From Verrucomicrobiota bacterium (lineage in GTDB: Bacteria > Chlamydiota > Chlamydiia > Chlamydiales > JAEYWL01): a stretch of DNA of 64,000 bases. Made by a program: the position numbers and the translations under genes. Location: assembly GCA_023428915.1 (NCBI GenBank), contig JAEYWL010000046.1:3-64002 (forward strand), written 5' to 3'. Positions 44,615 through 45,003 of the stretch are shown in pieces (positions within the stretch are counted from its first letter, which is position 1; every line of letters starts with the position of its first letter). The notes beneath the pieces are model-generated. The model was not told the DNA's origin, ran no database searches, and saw only the letters and a program-made list of their open reading frames with translations.

Positions 44615-45003
44615 ACAAGATACGCGCTTCGCGCTGCAGGATCGGCTGCGCCGGCAGGATAATTGTCTACTGTCTACATTTTGTTGTACATTAAGGAAAA
44701 AAGTTGTAAAGCGCAGAGAACACTGAGGAAACAAAATCGCCCCTCTTTTGAGCAAAGCTCAAAGCGCTTAAGGAGTAGTCCAAGTTGAAATAAGAGAGCA
44801 AATGCAAGCTTACATGAAACTTAAAGGCTGCTCTCTTATTTCAGCTTGGACTACTCTTTAAATAGTTTGCAATTGCAAAAGGGGCGATTCTCTGTGTGCT
44901 TTGTGTTAAAATTTAATGCAGTGGAATTACTTTTGGCCTATATGAAAAAGGAGCATTATCCTGCCGGCGGAGCCGATCCTGCAGCGCGAAGCGCGTATCT
45001 TGT
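44615..45003. repeat. Palindromic element C: 389-bp nested palindrome
   Basis: 49-bp terminal arms acaagatacgcgcttcgcgctgcaggatcggctgcgccggcaggataat (44615-44663) pair with 44955-45003, 1 mismatch. Inner arms at 44771-44799 pair with 44830-44857. Confidence 0.85.

Follow-up and report, generated by a model that had tools for sequence, protein, structure and literature searches.

A gene-less composite palindrome between argS and an EpmB-like gene of a chlamydial genome, and the CAGGAT-array repeat family of its arms

Element C and its surroundings

The window analysed in this study is a 64,000-nt stretch of a chlamydial genome assembly (GenBank GCA_023428915.1, contig JAEYWL010000046.1). The spacer between argS and a convergent EpmB-like gene is 502 nt long, and a palindromic element, further referred to as element C, is located inside it at positions 44606–45012, corresponding to a hairpin of approximately 400 bp. 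The locus contains the following features.

42821–44563, + strand: argS (TIGR00456, 503 bits), its stop 42 nt before the left arm
44606–44663, + strand: left arm, consisting of the AT-rich leader TAAAATTTTA, then hexamers and hairpin units, and the final AAT
44616–44621, 44637–44642 and 44655–44660, + strand: left-arm hexamers CAAGAT, CAGGAT and CAGGAT, respectively
44622–44636 and 44643–44654, + strand: left-arm hairpin units ACGCGCTTCGCGCTG and CGGCTGCGCCGG, respectively
44664–44734: left inner spacer, not complementary to the right spacer, unstructured and without a match elsewhere
44735–44889: inner palindrome of 155 nt, unique in the sequence searched
44890–44954: right inner spacer, not complementary to the left spacer and unstructured
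44955–45012, − strand: right arm, an inverted copy of the left arm with the AT-rich leader at its outer end
44958–44963, 44976–44981 and 44997–45002: right-arm hexamers ATCCTG, ATCCTG and ATCTTG, respectively
44964–44975 and 44982–44996: right-arm hairpin units CCGGCGGAGCCG and CAGCGCGAAGCGCGT, respectively
45066–46031, − strand: EpmB-like gene of the KamA family of radical SAM proteins, convergent to argS, its end 53 nt past the right arm

The last gene was called epmB. Its product scores 347.3 bits with TIGR03821, below the equivalog cut-off of 369.3, and exceeds the cut-off of the KamA subfamily. Hence, EpmB-like is the safer name.

The repeat search paired the terminal arms (44606–44663 with 44955–45012) over 58 nt with 93% complementarity. 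The 49-nt core of the arms (44615–44663 with 44955–45003) is matched at 48 of 49 positions (97.96%), and a 42-nt arm core occurs twice in the window, compared to no occurrences in 100 shuffles. Each arm is formed by three hexamers with two tiny GC stem-loops between them, the loops being TTC and TGC. Following the AT-rich leader, the arm reads CAAGAT-[GCGC-TTC-GCGC]-CAGGAT-[CGGC-TGC-GCCG]-CAGGAT. The leader preceding CAAGAT is TAAAATTTTA in the left arm and, in reverse complement, TAAATATTAA in the right arm. The RNA fold of the whole element lies far below those of shuffled sequences, with z = −18.6 for the plus strand and z = −16.1 for the minus strand.

The inner palindrome has 33-nt arms (44768–44800 and 44829–44861) that are 94% complementary and enclose a 28-nt loop, as well as an outer pair of 13 nt (44735–44747 with 44877–44889). 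Folded as DNA, the segment 44738–44886 yields −44 kcal/mol (z = −9.4). The local hairpins at mirror positions differ: TTTGAGC-AAA-GCTCAAA at 44747–44763 on the left and TTTGCA-AT-TGCAAA at 44866–44879 on the right. When the left half of the element was aligned with the reverse-complemented right half, the two spacers showed no complementarity. Element C is thus a composite, in which family-type arms (see below) enclose two spacers unrelated to each other and, between these, a separate palindrome. Most of the initial annotation of this locus withstood the analysis. The termini, described as near-perfect over 49 bp, are so, and extend to 58 nt at the lower identity; the inner arms pair over a slightly longer stretch than claimed; both local hairpins are present; and the element does lie between convergent genes, of which the second is only EpmB-like. 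The description of the element as a nested palindrome holds for the arms and the inner stem but not throughout, given that 44664–44734 and 44890–44954 are non-complementary.

No match to the 291-nt interior was found by BLAST (word size 9) in 116 loci, and the search of a sequence index was likewise empty. The query 44561–45070, comprising the interior and the arms, did not match the interior anywhere else in the window at the same word size. To date, the complete element C is known from a single copy, and its interior has shown no relative in any of the sequences searched. Rfam matches were rejected as hairpin look-alikes scoring below the threshold, e.g. mir-2363 with 40.9 bits against the gathering score of 90.

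In Logan SRR13347294, a short-read assembly made independently from the same organism, two contigs correspond to window positions 40297–44644 and 44976–52031, with identities of 100% and 99.99%, respectively. One contig ends at 44644 and the other starts at 44976, both inside the arms of element C. Since these independent contigs reproduce both arm/flank junctions, the latter are genuine rather than produced by the assembly considered here. The SRR13347294 contigs also break inside an arm of another palindromic element of the window, element B (40277–40315), and not at element C alone.

The nearest ArgS relatives, 69–72% identical, have 10–80-nt spacers after argS, no element, and different downstream genes. 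Downstream of argS these relatives are not syntenic with the window. In the nearest relative found (L118, ArgS 72% identical), 124 nt separate argS from an operon encoding an abhydrolase, a Mur ligase and Ddl. The corresponding interval of the window (34203–42821) measures 8.6 kb and holds palindromic elements A and B, a duplicated trio of exported-protein genes, and hipBA. The difference in the distance to the operon, together with the changed gene downstream of argS, places elements A, B and C at synteny breaks.

In another chlamydial assembly, an unrelated compound palindrome of ~420 nt (L024:383–800) is located directly 3' of an argS orthologue (62% amino acid identity). It has long outer arms and two inner hairpins. 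Large palindromes after argS hence recur, with differing sequences.

The dispersed family of CAGGAT-array arms

The arm core GCTGCAGGATCGGCTNCGCCGGCAGGAT was searched for in one genome per prokaryotic species. It was matched in six contigs from two chlamydial metagenome-assembled genomes (MAGs), five contigs belonging to one MAG and the sixth to a MAG named 'Chlamydiales bacterium'. The 24-nt unit CAGGATCGGCTNCGCCGGCAGGAT matched 110 metagenome contigs, and the arm unit had no matches in viral contigs. The metagenome matches, the loci from the MAGs and the two arms of element C add up to 167 arm copies; the 24-nt bait fixes one hairpin unit, and the sampled copies are therefore biased towards that unit.

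The arms of element C are 85–87% identical over 55 nt to the arms in six of the fetched loci (L001–L006). Both of its units are found verbatim in other genomes, ACGCGCTTCGCGCTG in L006 and CGGCTGCGCCGG 32 times. When the window was searched by nhmmer with a profile of foreign arms, the left and the right arms of element C were recovered with E = 4e-11 and E = 1e-11, respectively, and nothing else was matched, the 64-kb window thus holding one copy of the arms. The leader AAAAT(T)(T)AA, the hexamer phase and the grammar of the units are common to the copies, including element C. An inverted arm of the family contains at least three CAGGAT-type hexamers (3–5), and the gap between adjacent hexamers is either 3 nt or a small GC stem-loop ending in G. 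Element C has three hexamers per arm, and its units conform to the gap rule. Hence, the arms of element C belong to a dispersed repeat family of environmental chlamydiae. Inverted pairs (+/−) make up most of the copies; a mini-palindrome of ~95 nt is the form seen most often. The interiors of inverted pairs are from about 10 to 382 nt long (e.g. 20, 45, ~134, ~200, ~250–300 and 382 nt), and nested or tandem arrays of modules are observed in L002 and L006. The interiors of other gene-less members are often palindromic as well, some weakly and some strongly: the identity between their two halves equals 0.55–0.86, compared to 0.69 in element C and a null value of 0.59 ± 0.02.

The stems between the hexamers are kept by compensatory changes: the observed variants include CGGC/GCCG, CGCC/GGCG, CAGC/GCTG, CGCAGC/GCTGCG, CACCGC/GCGGTG and CGCCGCAC/GTGCGGCG. 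With the bait left out, a perfect stem of at least 4 bp is present in 43 of 89 distinct units, compared to 14.4 ± 3.0 units in shuffles (maximum 22 in 500 shuffles). The arms taken alone fold no better than shuffles (z about −0.4), and therefore the case for local hairpins in the arms rests on the covariation across the family. Units at mirror positions often differ between the two arms of one element (e.g. in L001 and L055), so that arm-autonomous folding is also a property of the family arms. Local hairpins of the kind termed arm-autonomous in the initial annotation, where they were noted in the inner palindrome, are thus a conserved feature of the family arms.

As for further copies of element C, the arms do have them, dispersed in multiple genomes, whereas the interior has none among the sequences searched. 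A search for target-site duplications and for a transposase that recognises the termini had also been suggested. None of the 43 inverted pairs, element C included, is flanked by a target-site duplication longer than 2 nt: flanking direct repeats are of 0 nt in 19 pairs, 1 nt in 18 pairs and 2 nt in 6 pairs, that is, at chance levels. No recurrent transposase-like open reading frame (ORF) was found beside the arms. Recurrent ORFs adjoining the arms are housekeeping only (yebC, SDR, DUF374, VWA), and the single gene recurrently enclosed by arms in 122 loci encodes a GxxExxY protein of ~135 aa with a PD-(D/E)XK domain, which is not a classical transposase.

A search for pairs of filled and empty sites by BLAST of joined flanks and by gaps between collinear HSPs identified no clean case among the 122 loci, because the flanks are often repeats themselves. 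The genomic context was classified for 75 family sites, of which 22 lie between convergent, 37 between tandem and 16 between divergent genes. These numbers are close to the 1:2:1 ratio expected without any preference; gene 3' ends are thus not favoured.

Two observations concern the neighbourhood of individual copies. In L003:5060–5200 a lone, unpaired three-unit CAGGAT arm adjoins a tRNA gene on the opposite strand. On four contigs from four different samples (L009, L031, L044, L073) a CAGGAT palindrome adjoins a gene of the yebC/TACO1 family, which points to an ancient insertion that has been conserved or to a site preference.

The enclosed GxxExxY gene

The 786 kb of sequence fetched by the DNA pattern contain five GxxExxY ORFs, and arms abut four of them (L055, L086, L109 and L035) on one or both sides; the ORF in L035 is a C-terminal piece. 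The four arm-bracketed ORFs are 61–88% identical to each other, and the fifth, in L039, which has no arms, is 31–35% identical to them. All four GxxExxY proteins tested match PF13366 with E from 1e-36 to 1e-38. The proteins from L109 and L055 and a homologue from L123 match TIGR04256 (NCBIfam) with E from 2e-38 to 8e-38.

The association was also approached from the protein side. The search with the L109 protein yielded 724 homologues at E ≤ 1e-20, most of them on contigs of ~1 kb. The named ones are annotated as 'GxxExxY protein' of Parachlamydiaceae, Parachlamydia sp. and Chlamydiia MAGs. Among the best 120 of the 724 homologues, 98 have QD, HD or KD dipeptides before the domain, CAG GAT being the codons for QD, and many of them start with MQD; 89 have HP[D/E/N/A] or YP[V/D] after it, which corresponds to ATCCTG translated in frame. 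In the three homologue loci from large contigs (L122, L123, L124), inverted CAGGAT-type arrays and one small GC hairpin surround the gene in all cases (3/3). The arms and the gene are thus associated in both directions, whether the search starts from the arms or from the protein.

Full-length cassettes are about 0.45–0.7 kb long and contain one gene of ~135 aa between the arms. In L123:10490–11080 an intact cassette is directly followed by three tandem copies of ~207 nt, with a 45-nt spacer repeated along with them. Each short copy still has its two arms and ~50 nt from the 5' end of the gene, the remainder being gone; such copies are deletion derivatives of the autonomous element.

Residues D72, E82 and K84 of the nuclease motif are invariant in 40 sequences, and E33 is present in at least 90% of them. 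The AlphaFold model of the GxxExxY protein (pLDDT 81.8) has an alpha-beta-beta-beta-alpha-beta core. Its best Foldseek matches, all weak (E > 1e-3), are PD-(D/E)XK nucleases, namely the R2 RLE domain, Cas4 SSO0001 and Bax1, and the sequence search of the PDB with this protein gave no match. The enclosed gene encodes a GxxExxY PD-(D/E)XK protein with an intact D...ExK motif, judging by its sequence a predicted nuclease. Steczkiewicz et al. (2012, PMC3424549) give the function of PDDEXK_3 as 'Unknown'. In the literature searched, no nuclease activity or DNA binding is documented for any GxxExxY protein, GxxExxY and PDDEXK_3/PF13366 are mentioned only in passing, and there is nothing on MITEs in Parachlamydiaceae.

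Neither element C nor the rest of the 64-kb window contains a GxxExxY gene or its remnant, as follows from a tblastn search with four GxxExxY proteins (E ≤ 0.01). The interior of element C being a decayed GxxExxY gene was ruled out by the same search. In lacking the gene, element C resembles most copies of the family.

An insert of ~180 nt with inverted termini GGCGCCGTAAGG is present in the 5' part of the GxxExxY cassette in L086:125–300 and in L040. L083 resembles the uninterrupted site of this insert, and the trinucleotide TTA is possibly duplicated (L086 compared to L083 and L085). The insert would represent another type of small element that lies within the cassette.

Interpretation and alternative explanations

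We interpret element C as a gene-less, composite member of a family of CAGGAT-array palindromic cassettes, a member mobilised, or once mobilised, in trans, and we estimate the probability of this reading at roughly two in three. The family is apparently undescribed: no paper on such cassettes was found in the literature searched. The dispersal of the copies and the structure of the derivatives point to mobility of the family members and of element C with them, and the enclosed GxxExxY nuclease is the candidate mobilising enzyme. In the proposed mechanism, the GxxExxY nuclease would recognise the units formed by hexamers and hairpins, probably in extruded or single-stranded DNA, and promote copying or movement of any DNA enclosed by a pair of inverted arms. 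Copies without the gene, element C among them, would be moved in trans or would be fossils of such events, and shorter family members may be derivatives of full-length cassettes with internal deletions or swapped cargo. Because nested forms recur (L002, L006) and the interiors are often palindromic, element C may be read as a CAGGAT palindrome with a foreign palindromic centre. Most likely, this inner palindrome either became nested by inserting into the loop of a shorter CAGGAT palindrome or was captured as cargo. A stronger version of the same reading is that the arms alone are sufficient substrates for a minimal GxxExxY enzyme, element C being a natural 'cargo-swapped' cassette, and that the nested forms (C, L002, L006) arose from preferred insertion into palindrome loops. 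We regard this version as possible, if rather doubtful.

The mechanism outlined above would be analogous to that of REPINs and RAYTs. REPs are defined as imperfect palindromes of 20–40 nt headed by a GTAG or CGTC tetranucleotide (Di Nocera et al. 2013, PMC3733652), and REPINs are hairpin-forming REP doublets whose mobilisation is due to REP-associated tyrosine transposases (Bertels & Rainey 2011, PMC3116915; PMC3733652). Both systems have GC-rich hairpins next to a short word, inverted doublets that fold into a larger hairpin, and extragenic dispersal without target-site duplication. Moreover, in both of them many copies lack genes while few bracket a small gene of a nuclease type, and both form clusters and tandem arrays. 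They differ in the word, which is the iterated CAGGAT in the family studied here and a GTAG or CGTC tetranucleotide in REPs; in the enclosed gene, a ~135-aa PD-(D/E)XK GxxExxY protein instead of an HUH Y1 transposase (RAYT); and in the interiors, which may be long in this family, as in element C with 291 nt and a palindrome of its own. Hence, the REPIN/RAYT system is the closest published analogue in logic, and element C is not a member of it, as neither the word, with its iteration, nor the fold of the enzyme is the same. We consider it very improbable that element C is a REP/BIME-type element served by a Y1 (RAYT-like) transposase. Its arms do resemble REP doublets, in that a conserved short word beside small GC hairpins forms inverted pairs. 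However, this word is repeated three to five times per arm rather than standing as a single GTAG or CGTC head, as the definition requires (PMC3733652), and the sole recurrently enclosed gene in 122 loci is GxxExxY, with no recurrent transposase-like ORF.

The main rival to the mobile-cassette interpretation, with which it is compatible, is an RNA-level cassette similar to the intervening sequences (IVSs) of 23S rRNA. The terminal stem would then be a substrate of RNase III, and the element would be cut from read-through transcripts and hence be harmless; the GxxExxY gene would be a passenger like the S23p ORF, and the spread would proceed by another route such as recombination. IVSs, as known from Coxiella burnetii (PMC4990558), measure about 0.1–0.7 kb; their ends are long inverted repeats, which pair into a stem in the RNA, and in some cases a single small ORF with an unclear role is enclosed. 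They look selfish and spread horizontally, and the CAGGAT-array cassettes are like them in all these respects. In RNA of either strand the ends of element C would pair almost perfectly over more than 49 bp, family members occur in all intergenic contexts, including the spacers between co-oriented genes, and a small ORF between long inverted repeats matches the IVS architecture (PMC4990558). On the other hand, element C is situated between argS and the EpmB-like gene and not in helix 25 or 45 of 23S rRNA, and an Rfam scan of 30000–64000 gave no rRNA match. Its arms are hexamer arrays, and the ORF family is GxxExxY and not the S23p four-helix bundle of IVSs. The iterated hexamers and individually conserved hairpins suggest a protein reading repeated sites rather than a mere long duplex. 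The catalytic motif, invariant in 40 sequences, implies selection on the GxxExxY gene, whereas the S23p ORF decays. We therefore consider this explanation unlikely. That the family is maintained as host-serving signals, element C being a bidirectional terminator or a stabiliser of mRNA 3' ends for argS and the EpmB-like gene, appears quite improbable. The position between convergent genes, the T-rich leader that follows the GC-rich arm on both strands (TTGTTAATATTTAAT on the plus strand and TTGTAAAATTTTATTTCTT on the minus strand) and a terminator-like site called at 44984–44996 would fit such a role, but two terminator-like calls against a shuffle mean of 1.4 constitute no excess, the 75 classified family sites show no preference for 3' ends (22 convergent, 37 tandem, 16 divergent), a composite of 400 nt far exceeds the size of a terminator, and the nearest relatives do with 10–80-nt spacers after argS.

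The near-perfect 49-bp terminal inverted repeats (TIRs), the AT-rich flanks and the size of element C recall a MITE of the TIR type moved by a DDE transposase, and palindromes of this kind may also arise by a purely local inverted duplication or as an assembly artefact. Correia/NEMIS elements of Neisseria are non-coding, intergenic MITEs of ~100–400 bp with terminal inverted repeats, which can form hairpins in transcripts; they have simple TIRs and a TA target duplication. Element C is similar to them in size, in being non-coding, intergenic and hairpin-forming, and in having terminal inverted repeats. It differs in the lack of a target-site duplication and in its ends, which are composite arrays of hexamers and hairpins. 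Considered by the standards of DDE-type MITEs, element C has TIRs but no target-site duplication of fixed length; no flanking direct repeat exceeds 2 nt in the 43 pairs, and no transposase is tied to the arms. A local duplication is at odds with the arms being common to many genomes, and an artefact, with the reproduction of both arm/flank junctions in the independent assembly. All three variants thus seem hardly credible.

The GxxExxY/PDDEXK_3 proteins constitute a very large prokaryotic family, the function of which is listed as 'Unknown' (PMC3424549). If its genes are regularly bracketed by arrays of hexamers and hairpins, and gene-less copies such as element C abound between genes, this family is a candidate for a so far unrecognised parallel to the REPIN/RAYT partnership, built on a different nuclease fold. 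Element C adds a gene-less, unusually large, composite example to the cassettes. If, moreover, the arms alone are sufficient, the cassettes would form a new class of mobile elements in prokaryotes, one of very small size, the GxxExxY family would acquire a function, and the gathering of compound palindromes at synteny breaks in these chlamydial genomes would be accounted for. Such palindromes also break short-read assemblies, as seen from the two independent contigs that end inside the arms of element C, and at synteny breaks they may contribute to rearrangement in the otherwise streamlined genomes of these intracellular bacteria.
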